IMG/VR virus record: IMGVR_UViG_3300044854_000085
Coordinates: 20,757-84,756 of that record
Length of the DNA: 64,000 nt
Source of the DNA: a virus
Lineage: Duplodnaviria; Caudoviricetes
Strand: one strand, 5' to 3'
The notes below the pieces were generated by a model, which was not told the DNA's origin, made no database searches, and saw nothing but the letters and a program-made list of their open reading frames with translations. A program made the position numbers and the translations under genes. Below are positions 301 to 64,000 of this stretch, in pieces. Every line of letters begins with the position of its first letter. The stretch's first letter is position 1.

Positions 301-486
301 ATGGTGCGGTTGACCGAAAGCCGCTGCATCAACTGTGGCGATCGGCACATCGAATCCCTGTCGCCGCAACTGGAGTTTCCGTTCACACGGATGTGCATCT
401 GCGGATGTTCGCTGTTCGAACCTGAGCCGGACCCGCTTCTGAGGACTGATGAGCTGCTACAAACGCGGGAAGTACTACTGGTATGA
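301..486 (+). CDS. Small Cys-rich hypothetical protein
   Basis: 61 aa with CINC and CICGC; overlaps the integrase start. Confidence 0.45.
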   Translation: MVRLTESRCINCGDRHIESLSPQLEFPFTRMCICGCSLFEPEPDPLLRTDELLQTREVLLV

Positions 487-1507
487 CCTCCTCTGGGACG
501 GAAAACGGATCCGTCGATCGACACGTCAAGCCTCCAAACGCGCCGCTGAACAATTAGAAGCCGCACACCGTACGCGCCTGGCATTGGGCGAGGCCGATAT
601 CGCGCCGCGAAAGAAGGTCACGCTCAAAGATTTCTCCGCGCAGTTCAACGACTATGTGAAGGTGCGATCGGCCGAACGGCCGCATACGGTCGCCTTCTAC
701 AAGCGCACGACGTCGAAACTTCTCGAGTACGAGCCCCTCGCTGCGGTCTGGCTCCATGCGATCGATGAAACATTGATTGACGGATACGTCAGTCAACGCC
801 GGGAACAAGTCGCGCCGGCGACGGTCAATCGCGAGCTCGCCACGCTGAAACGCATGCTGCGGCTGGCGATGACGCATTGGAAGCTGCTCGACAAGGTCCC
901 GAAGGTCACGCTGCTCGACGGAGAACGGATTCGCGAATTCATTCTCTCGCCGGAGCTCGAAACCAAGTACCTGGCGGCGGCGCCGCAACCGTTAAAGGAT
1001 GCCGCGGTCGTCATGCTCGACGCAGGCCTGCGCGCCGGCGAGCTGCTCCGTCTGACGATTCACGACATCGAATCCGAACCGAAGCAAGGCGCGAAACTCG
1101 GCTCGATTTGGATCCGGAAGGGGAAATCGAAGAATGCCAAGCGCGTCCTCTCGATGACGGAACGCGTTAATGAAACGTTGGCCAATCGGCCGCTGACCAC
1201 GAGCGTTTACATCTTCCCGGGTAAGAAGCCGGAAACGCCGATATCGATTTCGTGGCTGGAGCGGCAGCACCGCAAGGTGCGCGAGACGCTGAAGCTGCCC
1301 GAAGAGTTTGTCATCCACTCGCTGCGACACACGTTCGGAACCCGCCTGGGTGAGACCGGCGCGGACGCGTTCACAGTCATGAAGGTGATGGGTCACTCCT
1401 CGGTGACGATCTCACAGCGTTACGTGCATCCGACTCCGGACACGATGGAACGGGCGTTCGAGCGCCTGGCTGCGTTGCAGACCGCTAAAGAAAAGAAGGA
1501 AAGTTAA
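449..1507 (+). CDS. int: Tyrosine recombinase / phage integrase
   Basis: N-terminal arm-binding-like segment (YKRGKYYWY..GKRIRRST), catalytic R in AGLRAGE, HSLRHTF box, MGH and the catalytic Tyr in QRYVH. Confidence 0.95.
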   Translation: MSCYKRGKYYWYDLLWDGKRIRRSTRQASKRAAEQLEAAHRTRLALGEADIAPRKKVTLKDFSAQFNDYVKVRSAERPHTVAFYKRTTSKLLEYEPLAAVWLHAIDETLIDGYVSQRREQVAPATVNRELATLKRMLRLAMTHWKLLDKVPKVTLLDGERIREFILSPELETKYLAAAPQPLKDAAVVMLDAGLRAGELLRLTIHDIESEPKQGAKLGSIWIRKGKSKNAKRVLSMTERVNETLANRPLTTSVYIFPGKKPETPISISWLERQHRKVRETLKLPEEFVIHSLRHTFGTRLGETGADAFTVMKVMGHSSVTISQRYVHPTPDTMERAFERLAALQTAKEKKES

Positions 1508-31756: not shown

Positions 31757-33357
31757 CCATGAGAAAACTATTTTCACTTATCGGCGCAGTTCTACTCCTC
31801 GCCACGGCGAGCGACGCGCAGACGGTCGCGAACCGGCCGACATACTCCGGCGAGGGAGCACCCGCCGACCTTCGTCCCACATGCAATTCTGGAGATCGCT
31901 TCATCGATACCTCGGCGAAACTCGCATACACCTGCACGGACCCGACGAACGAAACCGCGGCGAATCGCTGGTCGCAAGATGGAGGTTCGAGCGGCGGGGC
32001 GGGGTCGTTCTCGGACCAATACACGGTCACGGGTTCTGAACTGGTGGTTGACGGCAATCTGGCCACAGATCCGACCATGAGTGGGTGGACGCTGGGGGGC
32101 GACACGTCCTGGTCGCCCGGGTCTGTCACGTCCGTCTACGCCGGTGGCGACCCGACAGTTACGACCAACGCGTTCTCAGTCACTATGGGGCACTTCTATC
32201 TGGTGTCGTTCACGTTGAGCGGGGTTGTGGGGGCTGGTCCTAATTTCTACAGCAACGGTGGCAGGCTTACCAGCTACAGTCCTGCAATCCCGAACGGCGA
32301 CTTCTCCGTCGTCGTGTACGGCAAGTCTACGGGGTCGGATTCGCTCGTCATCGACGACCACGACTATTCGATGGACGACGCCTGGACGGTGTCCAACGTG
32401 TCGGTCAAGGAAGTGGACCTGTCCCCCGCCTTCACCGACGGCAGGATCAACATCATAAATTCCGTCAGCAGGCACCAAGGCATATTCTCCGACTTCAAAC
32501 TCGAGGTGCGGACTCCACTTTTGCGCGTGGGGCAGAGCGACGCCGCGCCCGAACTGCTTTTTAATGCGGACGGCCTGTCGGTATTCGGCGGCGCGAACCC
32601 CGACGCGGCGTCCGTATTGAGCGTATTCGACAGTACTACGTTTCCGGGCGACGCCACGAACTACTACAGCGCCTTCGTCTACCAGTTGATGAACGCGAAC
32701 GGCCACGTCATCACGAACCAGTCCGGCATGAGCGTGACGGCGGGGGTCACGGACACGACGGGCGGCGCGTCATTTACTGGGTATTCCGCCGCGTACTCGG
32801 GCATCTTCGGCATCAGCGGCAACGCCACCACCGCGTCGCCGGTGGCGGCTGTCGCGGTGTACTACGCCGACGTGCAGCAGGCTAGTGGCGGCCCCAAGTC
32901 GCACGCTGCCCAAGTTTCTGGATTCTACGCACCCACGTTCGAGACGTTCCCGTGGAACGGAACCCGCGGCACCGACACGGTGATGGTCTTTTGGTCCGGC
33001 GATCAAGCCGGAACGGCAACGAACGTCTACTATTCCTGGTTCGATTCCAGAGGCGTCGGCCGTTGCAAAGAAGATAGCAGCTTCGACTCGGTCGGTCAGT
33101 CCATCTGCGTCGTTTATAACCCGCAGTTCACGAAGTACACGCCAGGGGCGTCGAACTACGAGCGTATCGTCTACGGCCAGTGGGACGGCAACGTCGCGGA
33201 GATGGGTCCAGAAAAAGGCGGCACCGGAACCGAGCGCGATCTAAAACTGCTCGGCGCACATTTGAAGATTAAATCCATAACTGCATGCCCGTCCGGACAA
33301 ACCGCGCCCTTGTCGATCGATGAGAATGGCAACGTGGTAAAGGGTAGCTGCTCCTAA
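31753..33357 (+). CDS. Ser/Thr/Gly-rich fibre- or adhesin-like protein with a signal peptide
   Basis: MRKLFSLIGAVLLLATASDAQ leader; beta-rich body. Confidence 0.65.
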   Translation: MTMRKLFSLIGAVLLLATASDAQTVANRPTYSGEGAPADLRPTCNSGDRFIDTSAKLAYTCTDPTNETAANRWSQDGGSSGGAGSFSDQYTVTGSELVVDGNLATDPTMSGWTLGGDTSWSPGSVTSVYAGGDPTVTTNAFSVTMGHFYLVSFTLSGVVGAGPNFYSNGGRLTSYSPAIPNGDFSVVVYGKSTGSDSLVIDDHDYSMDDAWTVSNVSVKEVDLSPAFTDGRINIINSVSRHQGIFSDFKLEVRTPLLRVGQSDAAPELLFNADGLSVFGGANPDAASVLSVFDSTTFPGDATNYYSAFVYQLMNANGHVITNQSGMSVTAGVTDTTGGASFTGYSAAYSGIFGISGNATTASPVAAVAVYYADVQQASGGPKSHAAQVSGFYAPTFETFPWNGTRGTDTVMVFWSGDQAGTATNVYYSWFDSRGVGRCKEDSSFDSVGQSICVVYNPQFTKYTPGASNYERIVYGQWDGNVAEMGPEKGGTGTERDLKLLGAHLKIKSITACPSGQTAPLSIDENGNVVKGSCS

Positions 33358-36080: not shown

Positions 36081-39071
36081 CTATTTCTGGCCGCGTATCG
36101 AGGGCTCTCTCGCCAACTTCCGTCGCAAAAGGTCAATGGCACCGTCCTTGCCTACCACCGACTCCGATAGACCGAGGACATCACGCAAGAATCGGCTGTC
36201 GAGCTCCTGCCGTATCTTGTCGTGATCGATTTCGTGAAACGGCAGCAAATCCATTCCACTTAAATCATCGAAGATTTCGGCCGTCTTCTTGAGTTGCTTA
36301 GCCGAGAGTGCCGTCACGTCAAGGATTGGTAAAGAGGGCAGAACCGATACACCAATGCTTCCTCTTCCCGACTGCTGTTTGTTCGCGTGATACCAGTGTA
36401 AGAGCAACCCGAGCGAGGTATTCGACCAGAGCACCAAAGCTTTCTCCTGATCTTCAGAAGCCAACCGAATAGAAATCCAGGCTCGACCGCCAATTGTCCG
36501 TCTTTGAGTAAATTGCATACTCGTGGACTGGCTATTGAAGCGAAAATCACGGCTGAAGTGACAATGCGAGGCACTGTTCCAGACGTTCTTGAGTTTGAAT
36601 TCAATGATGACCTTTTCCTTCGCATTCTTGCCCTTGCGTGGCAATCCCTCACTATCCCCCTCGAACGCGATACTACGTTGCTTCTCTGCGTCGTGGGACC
36701 ATAGAACTGGATACGTTGGTGCGCTTCCCGGTTTCACCGCTGAGACATCGAACGGCCCTCGGATTCCTCCGCCTTGAGTCTTCCCGTTAATGTCCGCGTG
36801 GTAAGGGCCAATTTGACCTATCGTGTCCACGGTCGTCATTGAAATCGCGATTGATTCAGATTCTTCCATCGTCGGCAACCAGATGCGTTTCATGACTGCA
36901 ATTTGGTACGCCGCCTGTGCGAGAGCAATGTCGGCGACGCGGGCCAAATTCCAACCACCTTCCGTCGGCAGAGGGGCTTCCACGGCCTGACCGATCACGT
37001 CATTTCCGAAATTCAACAGCGTTCCGCCAAACGGACCATCCTCAAGGCTTCGAAGGTTTTTCGCGGCAATCAAATTATGAATCTGGCGCGCAGCACTCGC
37101 GCCCAGCATCGGAAAAGCAGGTCGTTCGTTCAGCACCACAAAGGTTCCTCGCTTCTCTGGACGGACCGCAGGAAGAGGAGTGGCTTCCTCTGCAACCTTT
37201 CGTCCCACCACGAGACATTCGCCGATATCTGTGTCTGCGGAAAACGACAATTCCGCGCCCTGCGCACCCGCAATCGACACGACAATCAAATCGTCATAGC
37301 GTTTCGTCAGCACACTCCGCGAATCCTCCCAAGCCTCACCCGACATGAGACTGAGTGGCATAACCAACGCAAGCATGCCGCCGATCTTCAATTTGCGGTC
37401 CGCCAGAACAAGAAAGACAGACGCTTCGCCGGCGTTGCCGTGCGCACTCGTTTTGTCGGTGAGATCCTTCAACTTGTCCGCCATCTTTTTCTGTTCTTGG
37501 TCGGTTGCCGAAAAAGCGGCGAACATCGGATTGCGTACGCCAATCTTCTGTGCTTCGTGACCGGTGTCTCGAGTAAACGGCGGATTCATTATCACCACAT
37601 CAAACGAACGATGCGGCATGTCGGCCCATCTCGCTTTCTCAAATTCACCCATGCCTTCGACCACTTTGGCCGAGGTGATGTGAAGAAAATCCTCAATCTT
37701 CCCTTGCGGATCGAGCAACGCCAATGAACCGAGTGCAACGCCTCCATCCTCCTGGACCCCATAAGCGACGGTCAGAATCGAACTTTGTTTGTATTTAACG
37801 AGCGGATGCGCTCCGGCAAGCATTGAAGCCGTCAAATGGGCGGCGGCCGGCAATACGTCACAACCCATGAATGCTAGAGCCATCATGTCTGGATGAAGAA
37901 CTTCGGAATCGCCTCCGGCAAGTTCGTGCAATTGACTGACGCGCTGATACGCCGTCGTCAACAACGTGCCGGTACCACACGCGAAATCCACGATTCGGAG
38001 ATTCTTCACGTCTTCAGGATTAGTCCATGAACCGCCTGTCGGCGTTTTTTCCGGAATGACGGCAAGCCCAACAAGCAAAGCTGCCGCGGCCGGTGTTGTG
38101 TAAAAGGCCGCCAAAAACTTTCGATCCGCAATGAGCCGCTGAAACACCGCCCCCGTGAGATCGTGCGATCGCATCAAGCGATTCTCGAGTAACCTTTCTG
38201 CCGTCACGACCAGCGTTTCTATTAAAGGTTTGCTGTACGCGGTGGGAATAAGCTGAAGAATGCGTCGGGCGATATCGAAGATCGGCCAATAATTGATTTT
38301 TAGGATCGCACGCCACTCGGCGAGAATCACGGATTTGGTCAATGCGCCTTGATTGCGAAGTTCGTCGAGGGATTTCACCTTCGCCAATTCATCCGGTCCG
38401 CCGGCCAACGTCTCCTGAAAAATGAATGCATTCGTCAAAATCGTTGTGGCCATGCGTTGCGTTTGCGCACTGTCGTCCTGTTTTAGTTCCGCCGCTATGT
38501 TCTCGATTGCGCCTTTGTGAGTAATCGCCATTTGTTCGAGCAATCCAGCGGATTCGATCACGCCGTTCGCCAGTTGATTCGCGGCTTCCTCGATAACGGC
38601 GGGCGGGACGGAGGCCGATTGAGCAAGGATCGAAATGTCTGCAATTGTTCCTTCAATCCAACCTGCTCCTGGCCATCGGGCTGAACTCGCCGGATCTGTG
38701 CCCGTATACAAGATCATTTGAAAGTCGGACGCGCTCACAATTTGAGAATGCAACTTCGAAGGCGTTGCGTTTCGTAGCCGATCGGGAACGCGCAACGCGA
38801 TTGATGAAAGGATCGTGCGGCCAGTCGTCTTGAGTTGTTGCCCGAGCCGCGATTTGGCTTCCGCTTCTACCGTGATAGCAGGCAGGACTTCCGTTTCGAT
38901 GACGACCGGCGAAACGTTCGCCTCAATAACTAAAATGTCAGGACGTTTACTACTGCCCTTGAGCATTCCGGTGTTTTCAGAACTGATGACGTTTGACGAT
39001 TGCCAAGCGCGCCGCGTTTGACGCAACGCCGCGGCGATCGCGTCATTGATGGTGTGCTCTGTGAGCGGCAC
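36081..39071 (-). CDS. Type IIG-like fused restriction endonuclease / N6-adenine methyltransferase
   Basis: N-terminal KRPDILV..VIETE, FYTTP, motif I VDFACGTGTLL, motif IV MNPPF, long TRD-like C-terminus; visibly more AT-rich than flanks. Confidence 0.8.
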   Translation of the reverse strand: MPLTEHTINDAIAAALRQTRRAWQSSNVISSENTGMLKGSSKRPDILVIEANVSPVVIETEVLPAITVEAEAKSRLGQQLKTTGRTILSSIALRVPDRLRNATPSKLHSQIVSASDFQMILYTGTDPASSARWPGAGWIEGTIADISILAQSASVPPAVIEEAANQLANGVIESAGLLEQMAITHKGAIENIAAELKQDDSAQTQRMATTILTNAFIFQETLAGGPDELAKVKSLDELRNQGALTKSVILAEWRAILKINYWPIFDIARRILQLIPTAYSKPLIETLVVTAERLLENRLMRSHDLTGAVFQRLIADRKFLAAFYTTPAAAALLVGLAVIPEKTPTGGSWTNPEDVKNLRIVDFACGTGTLLTTAYQRVSQLHELAGGDSEVLHPDMMALAFMGCDVLPAAAHLTASMLAGAHPLVKYKQSSILTVAYGVQEDGGVALGSLALLDPQGKIEDFLHITSAKVVEGMGEFEKARWADMPHRSFDVVIMNPPFTRDTGHEAQKIGVRNPMFAAFSATDQEQKKMADKLKDLTDKTSAHGNAGEASVFLVLADRKLKIGGMLALVMPLSLMSGEAWEDSRSVLTKRYDDLIVVSIAGAQGAELSFSADTDIGECLVVGRKVAEEATPLPAVRPEKRGTFVVLNERPAFPMLGASAARQIHNLIAAKNLRSLEDGPFGGTLLNFGNDVIGQAVEAPLPTEGGWNLARVADIALAQAAYQIAVMKRIWLPTMEESESIAISMTTVDTIGQIGPYHADINGKTQGGGIRGPFDVSAVKPGSAPTYPVLWSHDAEKQRSIAFEGDSEGLPRKGKNAKEKVIIEFKLKNVWNSASHCHFSRDFRFNSQSTSMQFTQRRTIGGRAWISIRLASEDQEKALVLWSNTSLGLLLHWYHANKQQSGRGSIGVSVLPSLPILDVTALSAKQLKKTAEIFDDLSGMDLLPFHEIDHDKIRQELDSRFLRDVLGLSESVVGKDGAIDLLRRKLAREPSIRGQK

Positions 39072-39323
39072 CTACAGCAATCCTTCCAGTAATGCCTTCG
39101 CTCGATCGATCCGCGGTTCATTGAGCATCCGGATCGCTTTAAGCACCGTTCGTTTGTGTCGTTCTTGTTCAACGATGTCAGGGGCCGCGTCTGCGGCTTC
39201 ACGCACGAGTTTGATGATCCTAGCGTGCTGTGCTTGCGACCACGGATCGGTGTCGGGCAAATCGCTCGTCGGCATGATCTCTCCTCGGTCGGTGATGATC
39301 GGATGCCGGCTTGGCCGTCTCAA
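39072..39323 (-). CDS. Small hypothetical protein abutting the RM gene
   Basis: Stop directly precedes the RM start. Confidence 0.45.
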   Translation of the reverse strand: MRRPSRHPIITDRGEIMPTSDLPDTDPWSQAQHARIIKLVREAADAAPDIVEQERHKRTVLKAIRMLNEPRIDRAKALLEGLL

Positions 39324-39714
39324 CTTTTCCGTTATGATGTGATCCAGCCGGATTGTTCACGATCATTCCGTGAATGTGTCGGTCAGGCCCGATGGAAAGA
39401 ACGCCTCTTTCCATCGGGCTGCGCGTCATTCTACAACAGCGCGTTGGACAGATTCGGGGCGCCTTCAGAGAGTCTGTCTTGTTTGGGATTCAGATCGCCT
39501 CGCCTAACTCGTTGACGCTCGGCGAAGCTATTCTTCAAGAGCGTGGGGCTTTGCGCGGCAAAGACAATCCTCGTCCGTCTCGATGTCTAACAGGCCGGTT
39601 CCTAACGAAGACTTCTTAGTCGAAATTGCAACCGCGACACAGCAGCCCTCGAATCCGCCAGGGGAGGACCCATGTTCGTGGTCTATATGGAACATCCGGT
39701 CGGAATCCCAATGT

Positions 39715-39969
39715 TCATATCCGATCCACGTGCATATAGGGCCGCCAGCCATCCATGTCGTCGCATGTATCTGCGTCTTCTATTGGTGGTTTACCGGCCA
39801 ACTGTCGCGCACGACGGCACGTTTCAATGAGGGCGGTATCCAAGTCCGGAATCGTGTCTCGAAATATTTGGCCGGGTAAAATCACTTCGCATTCCCACGC
39901 GTTTTCCACTCGATGCACGCGCAATTCAAAACCGAAAGATTGCCGCATCCATCCTTGAGCCATAATCAC
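39715..39969 (-). CDS. Small hypothetical protein
   Basis: 84-aa ORF in the leftward block. Confidence 0.4.
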   Translation of the reverse strand: MIMAQGWMRQSFGFELRVHRVENAWECEVILPGQIFRDTIPDLDTALIETCRRARQLAGKPPIEDADTCDDMDGWRPYMHVDRI

Positions 39970-40052
39970 TGCTCCATTTTTGATCCAAATTTTCGTTCGA
40001 ATCGGATTTCATCACATCAACTGATTTTGCGCAGCGCGGCGTCGAAACGGGT

Positions 40053-40787
40053 TCAAGGTTTCGGCCCTACTTCAATTTGAACCATGCCTTCCGCAATTCG
40101 TGGATCTTCAAATAGGTCCATAGAAAAACCTTCTGATTCAAACGCTCGTTGCAATATGGAGGCATGTACTGGTGGATTTAACCCGCTACGAATGATGATG
40201 CGGACGCCACGATGCGTGCTGCCAGATGCCTGGGCAAAAGAGTTCCGCCAACCCGCAGCGGTCAAAACATTGCGTATATCCGACGCAAATGCGCCCACCT
40301 CGGAATCTCCCTGTCCGTGCGTCAAGACCGCTACAGGCCCTTTTGCTGATCGGCTCAATACTCCGATTAAGCGCACGGTTTGCTCAGAGGTAATGATTCG
40401 AGGCGTGAGTTGCCGTCTGAGTTCTAGCGAGTCCTTCTCGAATATGGCGGCCCGCTGACGCAGTGCGGCCGCAGTCACCTCCAGGTTGCCAGCCCGTTCG
40501 TTAGCAGCACCAGCTTCCTTGCGTGCTGTCCCGGCTTCCTTGTTGGCTTCGCCCGCGAGATTATTCAACTTTGCTATCTCAGCCTTGCTCAAGTCTTCTA
40601 TCGCTTGCTGCACGGCGTGCAATTTGCGATTGTTCCACCATGCACGAACGCCAAATACCGTTTCACCGCCGACGCCGATAACTACGAGTACCCCAAACAG
40701 AATTACCCACTTTTCGATGCCGTCCAGGGCTGTTTCAAGCGCTTCCCTTTTGGCGAGCAGTGTTTCTACTGTCTCCGGCGGGACCAT
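40053..40787 (-). CDS. Single-TM coiled-coil membrane protein
   Basis: KWVILFGVLVVIGVGGE TM, EAG.A repeat coil, globular C-terminus. Confidence 0.7.
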   Translation of the reverse strand: MVPPETVETLLAKREALETALDGIEKWVILFGVLVVIGVGGETVFGVRAWWNNRKLHAVQQAIEDLSKAEIAKLNNLAGEANKEAGTARKEAGAANERAGNLEVTAAALRQRAAIFEKDSLELRRQLTPRIITSEQTVRLIGVLSRSAKGPVAVLTHGQGDSEVGAFASDIRNVLTAAGWRNSFAQASGSTHRGVRIIIRSGLNPPVHASILQRAFESEGFSMDLFEDPRIAEGMVQIEVGPKP

Positions 40788-41449
40788 TGACTCATTTCTC
40801 CTGGCCCGATCTGTGAGCGGACCCATTGGGTCACATGATCGGGCTGAGTCTGTGGGGTTGGTTCTCGGACAACCTTGATGACCATGCTCCCCGCATCCTC
40901 GATCGGATCGTCGACCGGCTGGCAAATCTCAACAACGACTACACCGACCCCCGGCCGAAGCACCAGGTTGTTTACATAGTCATAGATGGTCTTGACCAGA
41001 GGACCGGAGAGCCCACGGCTGAAAAACTTACCGTGCCTTTCGCGACCATCGATGGCGACGCAGACTAGAAGCCAGTTGCGATGAAATTGTTTCTCGTGCA
41101 GGCCCGTCGCTTGCCGTGTTCCCTTCTTTTCCAGTTCGCGCAGCTTCCCGGGAAGAAGCGTTTCAAATGTTTGTGGTTTGACCTTCACCCTCTTTGACTC
41201 GAACACGACAGCACGATCCGGTTTCGCTGGGTGACACACGAGAACGTCGATGTTCCCAGGCACCGTTGATTTACCGTGGATCTCCGGTGGTTTTAACTCA
41301 AACGCAATGCGAGCTGGGATGGGAAGATCTAACTCCCTCCAAAGCGTATGCCGGGCAGAAGATTGGCTAAATAGCCACCGTGTCAGCGGACCTTCGACAA
41401 TGTCCGTGACCGTCGACGACCTCCGCTGATTCAATCGCAATTCAGACAT
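40766..41449 (-). CDS. PD-(D/E)XK nuclease-like protein
   Basis: GNIDVLV...VFESKRVK followed by KGTRQA. Confidence 0.55.
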   Translation of the reverse strand: MSELRLNQRRSSTVTDIVEGPLTRWLFSQSSARHTLWRELDLPIPARIAFELKPPEIHGKSTVPGNIDVLVCHPAKPDRAVVFESKRVKVKPQTFETLLPGKLRELEKKGTRQATGLHEKQFHRNWLLVCVAIDGRERHGKFFSRGLSGPLVKTIYDYVNNLVLRPGVGVVVVEICQPVDDPIEDAGSMVIKVVREPTPQTQPDHVTQWVRSQIGPGEMSQWSRRRQ

Positions 41450-41526
41450 CGTTTGTATCTTCAATCGAATTATGGTGACGGCGGTCATCACGCGATGCAG
41501 TGGATCGGGGCCAGATCAGTGTTGCG

Positions 41527-42507
41527 CTACGCCGTGGCTTTTTGAGCGTTGGAGTCCGAAGACGTCTGCGTGGAACCGTCGGCGCTATTCAAAGACCTGC
41601 GCCGTCGTATGTACGCAATGGCCTCAAGCACTTTGAAAAACGCATCCCCAATGTGATCCGGTGTGAAGCGAATGAATTCGTGATCTGAATAGATGCCCTT
41701 CTCGAAAACAGCCCCCTCTTCGACAAGAGGTACAAGAAAAGCCCCCTGTTGAGCTCTCGCCATCTCGTCTCGCATCCATGAAGACGCTCCATCGACCGTT
41801 TGGATCACGACTACCAAATCGATGTCGCCCGACAACCTCTCCTGCACCTTCTCGCTGACACGACGCGGCTCATATGCTTCGCCGGTTATGACACGCACAT
41901 CGAGCAGTTCCAGAAATCTTCGAAGCTGCTGCGCATAATCGACCGCCTTTCCATCAAACCGAAAGCTGAGAAACGCCACAATCTGCTTGGCATGTGCGGC
42001 CGCCATCTCTTCCAGCTTTTCAATACGTTCGGTAATTTCCTTGAACCGCTGATTCATCCCACCAGGAGGAAGTTCGAGCTCTAGCTGTTTGCTCTTTCGC
42101 TCCACACGCGAAGGCCCCGCTGTCAGCGAAATATGTTTCCCTATTAACGCGATAAGCTGAGATAGATCATCGGGACCTTCCGCTTCAACGTAGATCGACA
42201 AAAACGCTTCATCATCAGAGAAAAAAGACAAACTTTCCCTTCTGTTGTTATAAGAAATGGCGCCTGAAATCAGCTCTTGAAAATCGACGGATAAACTACA
42301 GACGTCACATTTCAACTCGCATATCGAGACCAAGTCTTCTGGAGTAAGGTTGCGCCGATGTTCAGTTCCATCGGGAAAGGTCTCATGTAGCGTGATATCC
42401 ATTGACGTCCGGCCGAGATCATTCAAAATCGCCGTCAAACCGCGTCTGAGCTCACCGGGAGCAAAAACCTTCGGCTGAAACCACAAGTGCTTTGTCGTCT
42501 TTCCCAT
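41527..42507 (-). CDS. Protein with a C-terminal TIR-like domain
   Basis: AFLSFRF, LRRFLE, VITGE, DLVVVI, SSWMRDEM (putative catalytic Glu), LVPLVEEG; unknown N-terminal domain and coil. Confidence 0.65.
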   Translation of the reverse strand: MGKTTKHLWFQPKVFAPGELRRGLTAILNDLGRTSMDITLHETFPDGTEHRRNLTPEDLVSICELKCDVCSLSVDFQELISGAISYNNRRESLSFFSDDEAFLSIYVEAEGPDDLSQLIALIGKHISLTAGPSRVERKSKQLELELPPGGMNQRFKEITERIEKLEEMAAAHAKQIVAFLSFRFDGKAVDYAQQLRRFLELLDVRVITGEAYEPRRVSEKVQERLSGDIDLVVVIQTVDGASSWMRDEMARAQQGAFLVPLVEEGAVFEKGIYSDHEFIRFTPDHIGDAFFKVLEAIAYIRRRRSLNSADGSTQTSSDSNAQKATA

Positions 42508-42512
42508 TTGTC

Positions 42513-42923
42513 CTACGAGTAAACCGAAGTGTCCTGCGCGGGCACTGCATGCTTGGCAACCCACTCGAAGAAGCCTTCCTGATCCATCGCGTCCGCGCCT
42601 AAAGCCTCGAACGCTGCGGCGATTTCGTCATCGTCCTGACTCAATTCCCAACCGTTGACTTCCAGAAACACGAGCATCGCGCCTGCACCCGTCCTCTTGT
42701 TGCCGTCGATGAACGGTTGACCTTCCGCGAGAAAAAAACCATACGCTGCGGCCTTCTCTGGGATCGTCGAATATGCATCCTCACCGAATGCACTTTGTTG
42801 TGGCTGGAACACCGCCGACAGCAATTGATGTTCAGAACGAATGCCGTCGAGGCCACCGTATAGTGCGATGGCCCGACGGTGAATTTCTACAATTTGATCG
42901 GCGTTGAGATAAAGAACATCCAT
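42513..42923 (-). CDS. doc: Doc/Fic-family toxin, with the motif His replaced by Gln
   Basis: IVEIH..AI..YGG..GIR..QLLSAV.QP, KAAAY, QPFIDGNKRTG. Confidence 0.9.
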   Translation of the reverse strand: MDVLYLNADQIVEIHRRAIALYGGLDGIRSEHQLLSAVFQPQQSAFGEDAYSTIPEKAAAYGFFLAEGQPFIDGNKRTGAGAMLVFLEVNGWELSQDDDEIAAAFEALGADAMDQEGFFEWVAKHAVPAQDTSVYS

Positions 42924-42936
42924 CCGCGTCTTCCTT

Positions 42937-43164
42937 TTACTTTGCTAGTCTCCGCATCAGCTTCTCTCGCTTGCCGAAAACCTTGCTGGTTGCCCGCTCG
43001 AATTCTTCGGAGCTCGCATATCGGTGCGGAGCGATGATAAGTTCACTACCTCGGGTGCGGATTTCTACTTCGGTTTCGTCTTCCCAGTTGAGCTGCCGAA
43101 TGACAGCCGCCGGGACGATGATCCCCTGAGAATTGCCCACCTTCCGCAGTTTGCTCGTCAGCAT
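42937..43164 (-). CDS. AbrB/MazE-type antitoxin
   Basis: KLRKVGNSQGIIVP...LNW..ETEVEI...LIIAP; directly upstream of doc. Confidence 0.9.
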   Translation of the reverse strand: MLTSKLRKVGNSQGIIVPAAVIRQLNWEDETEVEIRTRGSELIIAPHRYASSEEFERATSKVFGKREKLMRRLAK

Positions 43165-43208
43165 GTTGAGTCCCTCCAGACTATTCCCGTCCCTCAAGAT
43201 GAGACGTA

Positions 43209-43228
43209 CGTTATAACAACGTTATAAC
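43209..43228. promoter_or_regulatory. Putative toxin-antitoxin operator
   Basis: CGTTATAAC-AA-CGTTATAAC, two palindromic GTTATAAC copies about 45 bp upstream of the antitoxin start. Confidence 0.55.
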
Positions 43229-43349
43229 ATTGTTTAAGGGTGCAGTGCTAGCACAATGTGTCAAGCACGGCATGCAAAGTTATTTCTAAATTGCTGTAGC
43301 ACGTTCGTCCGATGTGCCCTGCACATCCGGGCGCGGTAGGATGCGCGGC

Positions 43350-43715
43350 ATGAAGACGGTCATTTTGGTTTTGTTGTTGATGCTTGTCGCAGTCGGAGCG
43401 TCGAGCGCTCAAGGGCCGGTGTCTACCATGCTGACGGGGCGGGTGTCGGGGCAGGAGTTTTTGGAGCTTGACTACGCCAAGCAGCGATTTTGGGCGATCG
43501 GTTTTGTGGATGCACTTTACGTTGCGGACGCAACGCTTGCGCCCGACCCAGACAGATCAACCAAGTATCTGTCGTGCGTGCCAAAGATGTCATCAACGCA
43601 AATCGCCGAAATCGTAACGCGCTACATTAAGGACCATCCAGAAAAGTGGCAAATGCCGGCGAGTTTTCACGCGTGGAATGCACTGGTGCAAGCATGTAGG
43701 CGAGTGGACGGGTAA
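43350..43715 (+). CDS. Exported Rap1a/Tai-like protein
   Basis: Signal peptide; SGQEFL, IGFVDAL, CVPKMSSTQIAEIVTRYIKDHPE, ALVQAC. Confidence 0.55.
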   Translation: MKTVILVLLLMLVAVGASSAQGPVSTMLTGRVSGQEFLELDYAKQRFWAIGFVDALYVADATLAPDPDRSTKYLSCVPKMSSTQIAEIVTRYIKDHPEKWQMPASFHAWNALVQACRRVDG

Positions 43716-44122
43716 CGGGTCTCACTTATCCGTGACGTCGACGGCCGATCGTTCGACGCTCAGATTCACGGCGAGTTCGTAGGTTCCCATTGGGTAAAAT
43801 TACCCAATGATCGACGGATTGCCCACATCCATTGTTCTTTCGAACGGCCGCTAATACTTCCTCCAGCGTCACAATTACCCCTCCTTACCTTTCCCTTTGA
43901 GTGCTTCCAACAGCCAGTCCTCGTCATAAGGCTGGTAGCCGAAACCCATGACGTGCATGACCCGGCGTGAATTGCAACGCTGGCAGAATTCATAGTGATT
44001 CGCACGCGGCGTTTTGATCGGACCCGGACACGTCTTCGATTCGTCGAGAATCCACTGATGTCCGAACCAACGGCAGCGGCGCGGCTGCCGCGCGGATTCG
44101 CACATTGCGATGGTCCGGCGGA

Positions 44123-45850
44123 TCAATCAAACAACTCCTCGCTCGCGCGGAGCTCCCCGCTGCCCTGGATCAGCTCCAGAGAGCGGAGCCGACTCATGTA
44201 CGTGCTGAAGGAACCGCTGCCGCTACTCAGTCCCGCCGCGTCAGCCACTTCCTGCTTGGACATCGGCTGCGGATAAGCTTCGGCGAGTACGCGCAAAATT
44301 CGCGATGCGCCGCTTTCGCCCAACTCGTTCAACCAGTATTCGAGCAGTTCCCTTCCCTGGGGCAGCGGCTCGAAATCGCCCAACGCCTTCAGCCCACTTT
44401 CGGTAATTTGCAGATGTGCGCCTCCACCGACAATCCATCCGTTGCTACGGCCGCGACTGAGATACGTACTAAATGAGCCGCTCTTGCTCGACAGGCCCGC
44501 GAGAATTCCCACCTGGCGCGCGGACCGGCCTTGCGGGTATTGCGCGAGAGCCATGAGGATTCGTCGGAGACCGCTGTTGCCGACTTCCCCGGCTCCGTTA
44601 CTGGAGGCGTTCTCCCGTGCATGTGCATGCATATGCACGGGCGGCTTCGGCGGGAGCAACGCCTTCACGTCCGGCCGTGCCGGCGGCGAGAACGGTTTCA
44701 ATTGCAGCTTTGCCGCAGCGGAAGTCAGTTCACCGATCACCGCGCGCGCCGCATTCATTCGCTCCTGAAACTCCCCGGGAAGGGCGGCCAGTTTCGCGAC
44801 CGCTGTTTCCAATCGCTTGATCTGCGCATCCGAAATCACCGGTTTTTCGACAGTCTTCGTTTTCGCCGGCGCCGCCGGTTTCTGACGCTGGAGGTCCGCC
44901 AGTTCTTTTCGCAACATCGCGAGCTGCTTCCGAAGTTCGCGCGGATCCTCCTCCTTCGCCTTCTCGATCGTGGACTTCATCGCCTCCTGGATGCGCTCCA
45001 GATCCACAGGGGCCAGCGATCCCGATTTGTCGGTCTTACCAAACACCGGTGTCGCCGACGCGTCATAAGTCCACTTCGCACCGATCTTCACCTTTTCGAA
45101 AATGCCGAGCCATTGCGGGCTCCAGACATAAGCCGTCCCGTTGGGAAGCGACGGCAACTCCTTGACGATCTCCGTCATGTCGGTTCCCTGCTCGACAATC
45201 CAGCCTTCCATCACCTTCCGCTCCTGCGGCCCGGTCATGTTGAAAACGAACAGTGTGCCGATCTGATTGAGCACATCTTTGTTGACTGCCTGCGGCCGCT
45301 GCGAAATCAGCGTATTTCCGATACCGTAATTCCGACCGAGTTTGCAGAGGTCCTCCATCGCGCCCAACAGTTGCTCTTCCCCTTTGAACGCCTTCTGCGG
45401 AACGAATACCTGTGCCTCTTCGATGACGACGTGCATCGGCGATCGCGCGGCCTTCTTTCGGTGGAAGAGCTGTTCGGCAAACTGCGTCATGAATTCTTTC
45501 CGCTGGTGCTTGCGGAAGTGATGGACATCCAGAACTACGGATATCGCTTTGTCCACAACCAGGTCCGCAACCAGTGCGCCGGCTGTGTGAAGCAACGGAA
45601 TGTCGCCGCGATCGCCGCCGAAGATCGGTATCGAAATGCCGGGAGACTTACCGTCGGCAGCCAGACGCAAACCGAACCAGTTGCCGACTGGATCCAGAAT
45701 CACAACCTGCGCGCCGGCATCGAGCAGCTCTTCGACGAACTTCCCCGCGCCGTATGTTTTGCCCGCCCCGGAGCGACCCAGGAACGCGAACTTCTGCGTG
45801 ATGGCTTCCAGCGGCAAACTCAATTTGTCGGCAATATGTAGTTTCTTCAT
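44123..45850 (-). CDS. HerA/FtsK-like (DUF87/DUF853) ATPase with C-terminal winged helices
   Basis: GRSGAGKT, VILDPVG, VVIEEAQ, RNYGIG..ISQRPQ; coil, then wHTH-like repeats (SFSTYLSR/SFSTYMSR). Confidence 0.8.
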   Translation of the reverse strand: MKKLHIADKLSLPLEAITQKFAFLGRSGAGKTYGAGKFVEELLDAGAQVVILDPVGNWFGLRLAADGKSPGISIPIFGGDRGDIPLLHTAGALVADLVVDKAISVVLDVHHFRKHQRKEFMTQFAEQLFHRKKAARSPMHVVIEEAQVFVPQKAFKGEEQLLGAMEDLCKLGRNYGIGNTLISQRPQAVNKDVLNQIGTLFVFNMTGPQERKVMEGWIVEQGTDMTEIVKELPSLPNGTAYVWSPQWLGIFEKVKIGAKWTYDASATPVFGKTDKSGSLAPVDLERIQEAMKSTIEKAKEEDPRELRKQLAMLRKELADLQRQKPAAPAKTKTVEKPVISDAQIKRLETAVAKLAALPGEFQERMNAARAVIGELTSAAAKLQLKPFSPPARPDVKALLPPKPPVHMHAHARENASSNGAGEVGNSGLRRILMALAQYPQGRSARQVGILAGLSSKSGSFSTYLSRGRSNGWIVGGGAHLQITESGLKALGDFEPLPQGRELLEYWLNELGESGASRILRVLAEAYPQPMSKQEVADAAGLSSGSGSFSTYMSRLRSLELIQGSGELRASEELFD

Positions 45851-45876
45851 CGCTTCGGCCTGCGCCTCCAGTCCGT

Positions 45877-46690
45877 TCAATTCAACTCCGCGCGATCCAC
45901 AACACGCTTCCGGCCTCTCGGCTCGATCGATCCACAATCTAGGTCGATCACTTGATTCGCTCCGGGATAGAGCGTCAGCGTGCGGTCGACAATCACAGTC
46001 GGTCCCATATGAACAATCACTCGACATGTGGCCGCGTCCGGTTTTGCCGGCCGCCGGCATAACGCGCGGATGGCGGGCACGACGTTCACTCCAGAAATGA
46101 ATCCGCACATCGCAATAAACGCCCATTCGCCCCGAGAGGTTAACCCCGCGGCGATGCCCAGGCTCGCCCACAACACCGTGTGTAGGACGTGCCAATAATC
46201 GGGGTTCCACCATCGAGGCGCGATCATTTTTCCGCTTTCCCTTCCCACGTTTGGTTCGTCGGGTTAGTCGCGACGCGGTCCTGCACAAACCGCAGGACGC
46301 GTGCTTGCGCGTCCTGCGGCAAGTCGGCCATCACCCCGCTGATCACAACCATCGCGCGCACTTCCGGATCTTCCAGTCCGCGACGAATGACTTCGCCTTC
46401 TTTCTTGTCTTTCACGGGAATTGAAACGTTCATCGTTGCTCCTTTCCGCCAGCCCTTCGAACAACAGCGTTCAGCAATTCAAATAGATCGTCTCGCTCTT
46501 GCCGGTGACGCGCCTCGGTCCGTTCGCGCGACTCCATGACGTCGGCGAGAATTTTCGCAAGCTGCTCGGCCGTGACGCCTTCGGCCGGATGCGCGTGCCC
46601 GTCGGCGTCGATGTAAACCACAACGTCGCCGCGGTAACGAATGAGAAGCTCTTTCACAACGCCTCCAGGTCTCGCCGGCGGATCCGCCAT
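45877..46690 (-). other. Three small early genes (45877-46248, 46224-46433, about 46430-46657)
   Basis: Overlapping minus-strand ORFs with phage-like sizes. Confidence 0.5.
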
Positions 46691-60955: not shown

Positions 60956-61119
60956 TCCTCCATTTTGTCACCGGGCTTACCAACCCAAACACCCCATCAA
61001 CATCGTCCAACACAAATCGCAGGTATTGATATGGCGCTTCACGATGGCCCGATCTTCCGGCGACCACTTGCGGAAGAGATCCGCGCGGACGTAGTGGCGC
61101 TGTCCTCCGGGAAGCAGGA

Positions 61120-61509
61120 CTAGCTCAGGTTTCGTTTTTTTTGCGATGCCTTCATGCGGGCAGCCTTCTCGGACAGCGCTTCGAGATTGACTCGGATACC
61201 GTGAACGAGGTCGCCCACTTTGCTGTTAAGGATTACGGACAACATTCGATGAAATTCGTGGTGTTCTCGAGGAACCGTCTCCAACCGGAAGCCAAGCAGG
61301 AAATCTTCAAAATCCACACCGCACTTCGAAAGCAATTCCGCGTAGTGCTCAATGGTCGGGTTGGCGCGGCCAGCCTCGATATCGTGGATATAGGTTCGAT
61401 CGCGTTTTGTAAGCTTAGCGAGTTTCGTCACACTTAAACCGGCATCCAGGCGAAGCCGCTGCAAGCGCTCACCCATGAGTTTCTTGGCCCGTTCCACCCT
61501 CACATCCAC
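61120..61509 (-). CDS. CI-like XRE-family repressor (no peptidase domain)
   Basis: GERLQRLRLDAGLSVTKLA..DRTYIHDIEAGRANPT. Confidence 0.85.
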   Translation of the reverse strand: MDVRVERAKKLMGERLQRLRLDAGLSVTKLAKLTKRDRTYIHDIEAGRANPTIEHYAELLSKCGVDFEDFLLGFRLETVPREHHEFHRMLSVILNSKVGDLVHGIRVNLEALSEKAARMKASQKKRNLS

Positions 61510-61604
61510 GCCTAAACTCTAGATGGCTCGTAGCCTACAGGCGCGAGAATTTTTATGTTGGTTGTAATAGGCCATCTTGATGTAGGCTAATAACCACTAG
61601 TCTA

Positions 61605-61862
61605 ATGACGCAGACTGAACGACAAATTGCTGGAGCAAACATCCGACGACGGCGGGAAGCGGAAGGATTGTCAGTCACGAAGCTCGCAGCGGAGCTCGAC
61701 ATCGAGCGTACCTATTTCTATGACATTGAGAACGGCACGGCGAACGTGACGTTCGAAAAGTTCGAGCGCATCGCCGAGTACTTCCGAGTGACCGTCCGCG
61801 ATTTATTAGAACCGCCTCCTCGAGGAGGCAAACGCAGCGAATTGGCCGGGAGTCGTCGATGA
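61605..61862 (+). CDS. Cro-like XRE-family regulator
   Basis: GANIRRRREAEGLSVTKLA..ERTYFYDIENGTANVT; divergent from the CI-like gene. Confidence 0.85.
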   Translation: MTQTERQIAGANIRRRREAEGLSVTKLAAELDIERTYFYDIENGTANVTFEKFERIAEYFRVTVRDLLEPPPRGGKRSELAGSRR

Positions 61863-62023
61863 CCTTCGCGAACATCGCAATCGTTTTACTGTCCGTCGTG
61901 GTCGCCGCCATCCTCCCGATGGTCATTGCGTATGGATGTATCCGGTGGAGCGATCGACGGCAGTGGGAACGCTTGCTTGCAACTCGGGAGCGTCATCGCT
62001 TCCACCAAGAAAGGCAGGAGTAG
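61859..62023 (+). CDS. Small single-TM protein
   Basis: MTFANIAIVLLSVVVAAILPMVIAYG...; my translation; ATGA overlap and abuts the next ATG. Confidence 0.55.
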   Translation: MTFANIAIVLLSVVVAAILPMVIAYGCIRWSDRRQWERLLATRERHRFHQERQE

Positions 62024-62353
62024 ATGCGGCAGAAGTTCGAGGCAACCAACTACGCCGACAGCGACGGCAATCCCGCGGGAGGAAGCGTGCTGTCGACAGG
62101 CTTGTCGATCGTCTGGCAGGACGGGCCACTCGGACGCGGGGAAGAACGGCAAGAGCCGAACGGTGTGTTCGTGGAAACGGTGATCGCGGCGGCGCTGCAG
62201 CGGATCGAGTTCTACCAAGCCGCGCAGAACGGCAAATTCAAATGCCGTGAAAACGCCATTGCGATCACCAAACTAGAGGAGGCGTTGTTATGGCTCGACA
62301 AGCGGATCCGCGATCGGGAAGCGCGCGACGTCGAAGGCACGCACGCAGCGTAA
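62024..62353 (+). CDS. tad1: Tad1-like anti-defence sponge protein
   Basis: IVWQDGP..NGVF..QRIEFYQ..F.CRENAIAITKLEEALLWLDKRIRDREARDVEGT matches the Tad1 pattern as I recall it (FQKG..HGV..RL..FQ..RENA.ALT..EEAL.W..R..DR..R.VLGT). Confidence 0.8.
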   Translation: MRQKFEATNYADSDGNPAGGSVLSTGLSIVWQDGPLGRGEERQEPNGVFVETVIAAALQRIEFYQAAQNGKFKCRENAIAITKLEEALLWLDKRIRDREARDVEGTHAA

Positions 62354-62664
62354 CGGAAGCAGGTGCAATGGACACGCCACCGGACAATCGTTGCGCGGCC
62401 TTGGGCGAGAGAGTCGATTCCCTCTCTACCGACACAGAGATTTTGCTTGCCCTTGGGCAGGCCGCGCCGAATTGAGATTGAAGGAGAAGACAAAAAATTA
62501 GGGGCCTTTTGCGGAGGCCCCGATCTCAAACAAGATTTAGCGCCGTAGCAAGCGCTTGTCTCGTGTCCCCATGATTGTACGCCGGGGAACGGGACGGGAA
62601 AGGTCCCGAATTGCCCGAAAACGCCGCATTTTTGCGATTTTTTAGATGCAACGGAACCCGGCTC

Positions 62665-63021
62665 CTACAGGCCGACGTGTTTCGCCGTCAACGCGATCAA
62701 CAACTTCTCGGCGATCGCAAACGGCACGCTGGCGGCATGGTCCTTCAGTCTCGCCTTAAACCCCTGCCATACCTTTTCGTTGCGTGCGGCATCCAGGAAC
62801 TCGTGTCCGCGCCAGGTCATACTGATCGGAACCCAAAGGAAATCAGTTTTGTCGCCGAGATTCTTACCCTCGATCAGCCCGGCTTCCGCCAAAAGTTTCA
62901 CGTGATAGGAAATCTCCTCCGGCGAATATTCCGGGGCTTCGACCTTCATCCATTTCTTGCCGCTGCCGCGTTCTTCGACTTCCAGCAGAATCGTACGAAT
63001 CAAATCCATGTCTCGCTTCAT
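62665..63021 (-). CDS. DUF2513 family protein
   Basis: MKRDMDLIRTILL, SYHVKLL.EAGLIE, MTWRGHEFLDAAR..VW. Confidence 0.85.
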   Translation of the reverse strand: MKRDMDLIRTILLEVEERGSGKKWMKVEAPEYSPEEISYHVKLLAEAGLIEGKNLGDKTDFLWVPISMTWRGHEFLDAARNEKVWQGFKARLKDHAASVPFAIAEKLLIALTAKHVGL

Positions 63022-63068
63022 GCAATTCCATTGTTGCACGTGCGTGACGATAGATCCCGGCGGCAACG

Positions 63069-63485
63069 ATGAAGATCACCATCCAGATCGCCGACACCGA
63101 CGGACCGAACGTTTCCCCGATGGACAATGAAACGAAAACGGCGCCGGTCGAACTGGATGTTCATCTTTGGGCCGAACACATTCATGTCGAAGAATCTGAA
63201 GCCGATGAATCGGAGGGTGACGAGGTCACCCTCGAGGCTCTCATAACGGAATTCATTGCGATGTTCGATTCCGACTTCGACCGCGAATCCGTGAAGCAAG
63301 AGCATCGGATGGATCCGATCGAGGAACACGTCGTTCTCCTGCTTCGCACCGCCCGCGAATTTGAACGCCTGCGCGAAATGCTATTGAACGCCGTCTACCG
63401 CCGCGTCGAGATCGCCGCACAAGAAGCGCGCGACTGGGATCGCCATGTCAACGAACAGAATCGGAACCGGAGCGCGGCATCATGA
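63069..63485 (+). CDS. Acidic hypothetical protein
   Basis: 138 aa; ATGA overlap with the excisionase-like gene. Confidence 0.6.
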   Translation: MKITIQIADTDGPNVSPMDNETKTAPVELDVHLWAEHIHVEESEADESEGDEVTLEALITEFIAMFDSDFDRESVKQEHRMDPIEEHVVLLLRTAREFERLREMLLNAVYRRVEIAAQEARDWDRHVNEQNRNRSAAS

Positions 63486-63856
63486 GGCGCAAACCTGAAG
63501 ACTCTGACAGTCGCCTGCTGAGCACGGCTGCCGCCGCGGCGTACATCGGCGTCAGCAAAAACACGATGTTCGACTACGTGAAGATGGGCGTCGTTCCCAC
63601 GATCACATTGCCCGCGCGGATCGATGATGGCGGACTGAATGGCAAACAACGCCGACGATATCTGATCGATCGACAAGACCTTGATGCGCTCATAGAGCGT
63701 CGGAAAACCACCGCAGCGGAGCGCACGATTTGTGAGCCGACGCCGGGTCCTTTACATGGCCCTAATGAGGAAGGCCGTCCGGGATTTAAGCGGGTTAGGT
63801 ATCCGAAGGGATGGCATGTTAAGTACACGGCCGGAAAGGGTTTAGGTGAGCCATGA
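63482..63856 (+). CDS. xis: Excisionase-like HTH protein
   Basis: LLSTAAAAAYIGVSKNTMFDYV..GVVP..RYLIDRQDLDALIE; next to the tRNA fragment. Confidence 0.75.
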   Translation: MRRKPEDSDSRLLSTAAAAAYIGVSKNTMFDYVKMGVVPTITLPARIDDGGLNGKQRRRYLIDRQDLDALIERRKTTAAERTICEPTPGPLHGPNEEGRPGFKRVRYPKGWHVKYTAGKGLGEP

Positions 63857-63873
63857 CGGTAATGACTGGCGTG

Positions 63874-63912
63874 TTAGGAAACCGCTGCTCTATCCATCTG
63901 AGCTACGGGGCC
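63874..63912 (-). other. 5' half of tRNA-Arg(CCT), truncated after the anticodon loop; probable att site
   Basis: Minus strand GGCCCCG-TA-GCTC-AGATGGATA-GAGC-A-GCGGT-TTCCTAA, then CACGCC instead of the expected ACCGC and T arm. Confidence 0.85.
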
Positions 63913-64000
63913 AAGCTATTCAGACGATCACCCGCCGGTCGAATGGCCCTTTTGCCGGCCCTTTTGAGCGCCGTCGATGGCTGCGGCCGCGGCCGCAAGA

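Follow-up and report, generated by a model that had tools for sequence, protein, structure and literature searches.

Tad1 sponges are a well-described form of phage counter-defence, of which thousands of homologs have been catalogued. Tad1 homologs from phages of Proteobacteria, Firmicutes and Cyanobacteria were reported in 2022, and those from Leptolyngbya, Opitutaceae and Acinetobacter prophages inhibit Thoeris (Leavitt et al., 10.1101/2022.05.03.490397). A collection of 1,587 non-redundant homologs has been assembled from IMG/VR v3 (Hadary et al., PMC12393519). An earlier, sequence-only reading of the DNA described here had stated that characterised examples come mainly from Firmicutes phages; this holds for the crystal structures, but homologs from elsewhere already inhibit Thoeris (10.1101/2022.05.03.490397), and, given these examples, a Tad1 outside the Firmicutes is no novelty. 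The reference structures are those of CbTad1 (PDB 7UAV, 7UAW, 8SMD and 8KBE-8KBH) and CmTad1 (8KBB-8KBD).

The ligand sites of these proteins have been mapped in detail. Leavitt et al. (10.1101/2022.05.03.490397) list eleven CbTad1 contacts with gcADPR, one of them H29, a residue of the GxGGAxH loop that touches a ribose hydroxyl. In the same protein, F82/N92 together with R109/R113 are required for binding of both gcADPR and 2',3'-cGAMP, while R90/T97 (R88/T95 in CmTad1) bind cyclic trinucleotides and hold the hexamer together, and substitutions at this trinucleotide site occur in only 6% of Tad1 orthologs (Li et al., PMC10680739). The guanine of 2',3'-cGAMP is contacted by Q8 and L13 near the N-terminus, and the Tad1 of Bacillus phage SBSphiJ7 binds both gcADPR isomers (PMC10680739). 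Acb2, which shares a helical hairpin with Tad1, likewise acts as a sponge in the form of a hexamer and takes up trinucleotides at a three-fold site (PMC10680739). Specificity varies among the homologs of a given sponge family (PMC10680739, PMC12393519).

The gene studied here lies in a window of 64,000 nucleotides, the whole stretch of DNA that was analysed, which runs from base 20757 to base 84756 of an IMG/VR virus record; this record measures 84,756 bp and has a completeness rating of 100%. The record carries a 127-bp terminal repeat (window 63874-64000 = G000:1-127) of the size of an assembler k-mer overlap, and is therefore best read as a circular assembly about 84.6 kb in length. Among its genes are those for a large terminase, a portal/Mu-F fusion and a tyrosine integrase; together with a CI/Cro pair, these identify a temperate tailed phage. 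On the minus strand just inside the terminal repeat, the sequence at about 63866-63905 resembles a tRNA acceptor and D arm; neither ARAGORN nor Rfam recognised a tRNA at this place, not even across the circularised junction.

The short Tad1 gene (P0001) occupies positions 62024-62353 on the plus strand and encodes 109 aa, with its ATG at 62024, its stop codon at 62351-62353 and an AGGAG motif 3 nt 5' of the start. The reading frame cannot be extended upstream, as the TAG of the preceding 54-aa ORF abuts the ATG. Codon-position GC (0.65/0.44/0.76) resembles that of the other genes of the phage. A mis-called or truncated ORF was considered and rejected, since the length is conserved among homologs and a stop directly precedes the start.

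Sequence comparison assigns the protein to Tad1. A phmmer search of all PDB sequences matched CmTad1 (8kbb, E 3.9e-13) and CbTad1 (7uav, E 8.8e-10), and everything it returned was a Tad1 entry except for one 230-aa protein, 'gp184'. In tblastn against GenBank phages, 99 records were matched, including the annotated Tad1 of SBSphiJ7; with this founding member, the protein shares 49% identity over 80 residues (pairwise E 1e-24). Across SBSphiJ7, CbTad1 and CmTad1, homology covers the last 75-80 residues or so at 32-49% identity. An alignment of 59 homologs of the short protein (A1), compared by hhalign with an alignment of relatives of a canonical Tad1 from the same phage (A2), gave a probability of 99.9% and an E-value of 6.5e-32. 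Family databases are less explicit: PHROG 2428, of unknown function, matches at E 1.3e-21; the Pfam model Acb2_Tad1_hairpin (PF24729) reaches 23.3 bits and so falls short of its 27-bit cut-off, but is assigned in a precomputed annotation that uses a later Pfam version; and NCBIfam holds no model for either Tad1 protein of this phage. The C-terminal motif from which the gene had first been recognised is present at residues 75-106 (RENAIAITKLEEALLWLDKRIRDREARDVEGT), except that two of its spacings were off by one: the protein has RENA...T and W...R, where two dots each had been written.

The predicted fold agrees with this assignment. An AlphaFold2 model built on alignment A1 reached a pLDDT of 96.3 and a pTM of 0.84, and consists of an N-terminal sheet of three strands (residues 5-11, 17-24 and 27-31) followed by two long helices (50-70 and 75-100). 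All Foldseek matches in the PDB with E <= 0.001 were Tad1 chains (probability 1.0, TM 0.63-0.72), and the next match had an E-value of 0.23. With VIA-align, the model superposed on CmTad1 with Z 10.2 (rmsd 1.9 A over 98 residues) and on CbTad1 with bound gcADPR with Z 10.1 (2.5 A over 100 residues), so that Tad1 structures covered 98-100 of its 109 residues, against Z 4.8 for the next unrelated chain. The antiparallel sheet and two-helix hairpin of Tad1 are thus both found in the model, the sheet having three strands versus the four (beta1-beta4) described for CbTad1. The HMM and structure comparisons that the sequence-only reading had proposed as a check therefore both lead to Tad1, and since sequence, fold and published ligand-contact residues all agree, its identification of a Tad1 homolog is borne out: the protein is a genuine member of the Tad1 family, encoded, like other Tad1 proteins, by a phage, here within a complete circular phage genome.

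Membership in the Acb2 family was also considered and rejected. The short Tad1 shares with Acb2, represented by T4 Vs.4 (PDB 7UQ2), the helical hairpin described by PF24729 and that alone, whereas Acb2 is devoid of the N-terminal sheet. The VIA-align match of the model to 7uq2 was weak (Z 4.4, rmsd 9.3 A), and the PDB phmmer search returned no Acb2 sequence.

The same phage carries a second, canonical Tad1 of 137 aa (P0121), encoded on the plus strand at G000:19693-20106 (L002:1336-1749), 651 bp before the start of the window. Its alignment with CbTad1 spans nearly the whole protein (E 3.2e-22), and the N-terminal strands and the GxGGAxH motif are present; its AlphaFold2 model, moderately confident with a pLDDT of 73, served only for counting strands. 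The two paralogs belong to the same family, lie on the same strand within the same early region, and conserve both the pocket and the trinucleotide-site residues. Their settings differ: the short gene stands behind cro, and the canonical one lies at the region's far end, where an excisionase-like HTH ORF and then the integrase (window 449-1507) come next. They are only 35% identical to each other, and each has relatives of about 80% identity elsewhere, which indicates that they were acquired separately. None of 10 other IMG/VR records with the short form, five of them at least 90% complete, holds a second, canonical Tad1.

Comparison with this paralog upholds the claim of a shortened N-terminus. 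BLAST aligns residues 3-109 of the short protein to 34-134 of the canonical one, and hhalign aligns 11-109 to 41-137; both agree that some 30 N-terminal residues are absent, comprising the first strand(s) and the GxGGAxH loop and, with them, the positions of the CbTad1 contacts H29, Q8 and L13. At 109 aa, the protein is 28 residues shorter than its paralog and 16-33 residues shorter than the characterised Tad1 proteins (125-142 aa). It differs from these further in a GNPAGG loop and a longer loop between strand 4 and helix 1 (GPLGRGEERQEPNG), as well as in E104, which replaces the leucine of the lid.

The residues that remain were mapped through the PDB phmmer alignments onto those named in PMC10680739 and 10.1101/2022.05.03.490397, taking into account that chain 8kbb is numbered +10 relative to the CmTad1 paper and chain u147712 -1 relative to CbTad1. 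The four CbTad1 residues required for gcADPR and 2',3'-cGAMP binding, F82/N92/R109/R113, correspond to Y64/N77/R94/R98, and R78/F87/G120/G55 to R60/F72/G105/G34. Clear equivalents were accordingly found for 8 of the 11 gcADPR contacts, among them all of the core adenine and diphosphate contacts. As for the remaining three, R57 has a probable equivalent in R38; N122 is replaced by H107, as in SBSphiJ7 Tad1, whose C-terminal lid, VEGTH, is identical to that of the short protein; and H29 has no evident counterpart. E104 stands at the position of the lid residue L119. The trinucleotide site is represented by R75/T82 (CbTad1 R90/T97), and the hexamer interface of CmTad1 (K96, Q98, E99, M102, W103 and K106) by K83, E85, E86, L89, W90 and K93. 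The short form thereby shares with Tad1 the adenine-stacking and phosphate-binding residues, the arginine and threonine of the trinucleotide site and the tryptophan of the hexamer interface. The structure prediction is of a single chain, and what speaks for an oligomer is the conservation of these interface residues.

Homologs of the short protein fall into 1930 clusters at 90% identity and 2196 clusters at 50% identity. Of the 1930 clusters, the 120 closest mostly contain proteins of 106-111 aa; within the subfamily, the GNPAGG loop hardly varies (P17, G19, G20) and E104 is conserved. Because this length recurs and is accompanied by a loop and a lid residue of its own, the short form is, judged from its homologs, a large and coherent metagenomic subfamily and no truncation artefact. 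Of 150 representative 50%-identity clusters, at least 95% retain the pocket residues, R38 excepted (88/150), which indicates selection on the pocket. Among the 120 closest clusters, R75, T82, K83, E85, E86, W90 and K93 are each kept in 100-120, and L89 in 85.

Further from the phage studied here, the second site behaves differently. In the 150 best representative short-form clusters, R75, T/S82 and W90 co-vary, all three being present in 31 and none in 81, and most of the more distant clusters are devoid of them while the gcADPR-pocket residues stay at 95% or above. A large subgroup of the short form may therefore exist that is dimer-only and blind to trinucleotides, to judge by these substitution patterns.

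The short gene is located beside a CI/Cro pair. A CI-like HTH repressor of 129 aa is encoded on the minus strand at 61120-61509 (Pfam HTH_31, 4.1e-12; PHROG 3 'transcriptional repressor', 2.7e-10), divergent from cro; a 44% identical homolog stands in the same arrangement at the related locus L015. The 95-bp intergenic spacer (61510-61604) contains two near-palindromes GTAG(C/G)CTAC at 61529-61539 and 61581-61590, which are candidate operators; an inverted repeat (I1) spans 61524-61539 and 61581-61596. The rightward unit begins with a Cro-like HTH regulator (61605-61862, plus strand; Pfam HTH_31 1.8e-11, HTH_3 1.5e-10), whose PHROG matches are families of transcriptional repressors or regulators. 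Its stop overlaps, in an ATGA, the start of a 54-aa ORF (61859-62023, plus strand; codon-position GC 0.60/0.42/0.69) with one predicted transmembrane hydrophobic helix and a basic tail, which ends directly before the ATG of the short Tad1 gene. This small ORF has no Pfam or NCBIfam match and only weak PHROG matches, and L015, the one syntenic relative, does without it.

The short Tad1 gene is thus the third and last of a tightly coupled unit of cro, the transmembrane ORF and tad1. It is followed, after a gap of 310 bp, by a convergent DUF2513 gene (62665-63066; Pfam 1.1e-28). Within the gap, a terminator scan detected a GC-rich hairpin at 62501-62521 whose T-run is confined to the minus strand; this hairpin is likely the terminator of the DUF2513 gene and shows where the rightward unit of three genes ends. 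A sigma-70 consensus scan around the short Tad1 gene and the CI/Cro spacer yielded no promoter, and Rfam found nothing in 61000-64000. The placement of the gene as third in the first rightward early transcript stands as regards gene order behind cro; a single early transcript for all three genes is inferred from their coupling.

The short form is widespread. There are 27 related loci within IMG/VR viral contigs, where it occurs in phages with third-position GC from 0.16 to 0.86, within runs of small same-strand genes, and relatives are found in metagenome-assembled genomes of six phyla; this wide spread in GC and phyla marks the gene as mobile. Of the related loci, L015, from an independent phage, is alone in showing CI, Cro and Tad1 in this order, with a short Tad1 that is 75% identical. 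Among cultured phages, the Vibrio phages VAP7 and BX-1 (MK795384, OK428602) and vB_VpaS_SD25, with genomes of about 145 kb, carry a relative that is 45% identical and has a GxPxGG loop, a longer N-terminus and no trinucleotide-site residues. Phage vB_VpaS_SD25 is classified in the Ackermannviridae, locus L042 is PQ249004.1 125709-126089, and the matching stretch of VAP7 and BX-1 bears no annotated gene. In another record (G560, that of locus L017), a weak hairpin-type match was observed at 32328-32522 on the plus strand (E 1.1e-4, 39% over residues 74-135 of the canonical paralog). It falls in a 109-aa ORF about 4 kb upstream of the short Tad1 of that record, and this ORF may, from its sequence, be a second sponge of the Acb2/Tad1 hairpin type.

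The sequence-only reading had proposed a probable Acidobacteriota host, which is not established. The phage KdsA is at best 61-63% identical to proteins in the Acidobacteriota sample versus 58-59% in the Planctomycetota sample, a margin too slight to tell the two apart; one of these KdsA searches took in two unpublished genomes (G027, G052), which carry none of the conclusions. In 401 sampled Acidobacteriota genomes, the short Tad1 had only 2 matches and the long one 1. The sole positive pointer to Acidobacteriota is a relative of the canonical paralog, 74% identical, that is labelled Bryobacteraceae.

Elsewhere in the window, a cluster of defence-like or moron genes was observed on the minus strand at 36081-46288. 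It includes an Eco57I/type IIG-like methyltransferase protein of 995 aa, a Doc/Fic toxin (42513-42920) with a MazE/AbrB-type antitoxin (42937-43194), and a HerA-like ATPase (44123-46285), all on the minus strand. A 344-aa ORF at 41527-42561 (minus strand) has no TIR match in Pfam or PADLOC. The ESM Atlas, on the other hand, gives a features score of 0.92 with 23 of 30 matches in TIR_2 clusters, and its structure search points to residues 192-325 or so, which suggests a TIR-like C-terminal domain. The coexistence of such a protein with two Tad1 sponges in one phage would deserve attention.

Taken together, the most probable reading (roughly 0.8) is that the short protein is a hexameric sponge that sequesters TIR-derived gcADPR and cyclic trinucleotides and is made at lytic onset. 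By analogy with the characterised Tad1 proteins, it would form head-to-tail dimers by way of its sheet and helical hairpin, and three such dimers would then come together as a trimer of dimers. The pocket at the dimer ends would take up the glycocyclic ADP-ribose made by TIR proteins of Thoeris, and possibly cyclic dinucleotides, while the site at the three-fold interface would accommodate cyclic trinucleotides, the signals of CBASS or type III CRISPR systems. By sequestering these immune second messengers of the host, the sponge would leave the corresponding effectors inactive. Translational coupling behind the Cro-like gene argues for early production, as soon as lytic growth or prophage induction sets in and before the host signal accumulates. 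Oligomeric state, ligands, expression timing and anti-defence activity are all features that we infer.

One alternative is that the short form is a decayed or non-functional remnant of a Tad1 gene that lost its N-terminus, in keeping with a length 28 residues below that of its paralog and 16-33 below that of characterised Tad1 proteins; yet this length recurs in most of the closest clusters, its ligand-contact residues are nearly invariant, its model is compact and very confident, and its codon-position GC is typical of coding sequence, so that conservation effectively refutes decay, which we regard as barely credible. The loss of strand 1 and of the GxGGAxH loop could instead signify a sponge of the same fold with a shifted ligand range, which would bind another ADP-ribose-derived or cyclic nucleotide signal, or would have lost dinucleotide binding, leaving the standard ligands to the canonical paralog in a division of labour. 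The subfamily's own GNPAGG loop and conserved E104 are consistent with such a shift, as are the retention of two separately acquired paralogs of 35% identity and the variation of specificity within sponge families (PMC10680739, PMC12393519). Even so, all core adenine and diphosphate contacts are kept, the VEGTH lid is that of SBSphiJ7 Tad1, a binder of both gcADPR isomers (PMC10680739), and nothing points positively to any particular alternative ligand; a shifted range is thus unlikely, although it is the more plausible of these two alternatives.

The presence of the paralog allows another possibility, namely that the short protein modulates the canonical one, for example through mixed oligomers, or, during induction, acts as a buffer for the signal from the TIR-like protein that the phage itself encodes. 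The helical hairpin that forms both dimer and hexamer interfaces is common to the two paralogs, and the TIR-like C-terminal domain suggested by the ESM Atlas in the ORF at 41527-42561 (minus strand) would supply a signal to be buffered. Against this, the 10 other IMG/VR records in which the short form occurs without a canonical copy indicate that it normally works alone, and the TIR assignment finds no support in Pfam or PADLOC. Such a role is very improbable, being far less likely than a shifted ligand range and only slightly ahead of decay.

A broader proposal is that the short form constitutes a functionally distinct Tad1 subtype, with a remodelled pocket entrance and a ligand spectrum unlike that of the canonical paralog. 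This is a tentative and rather doubtful idea; if it were true, the phage would possess two complementary sponges, one in its first early transcript and the other in the distal early region beside the integrase. In a bolder version, the cro-linked copy would mainly silence the signal of the phage's own TIR-like protein at prophage induction.

Given how many Tad1 homologs are already known, one more adds little by itself. The modest use of this locus is that it points to a large, coherent short subfamily that has dispensed with an N-terminal element known to contact ligands. The joint loss of trinucleotide-site and hexamer-interface residues in most of the distant members of this subfamily would amount to a natural experiment on the evolution of sponge specificity and oligomerisation. 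In addition, the occurrence of a short and a canonical Tad1 in one complete temperate phage offers a cleanly matched pair in which ligand spectra and the timing of expression can be compared.
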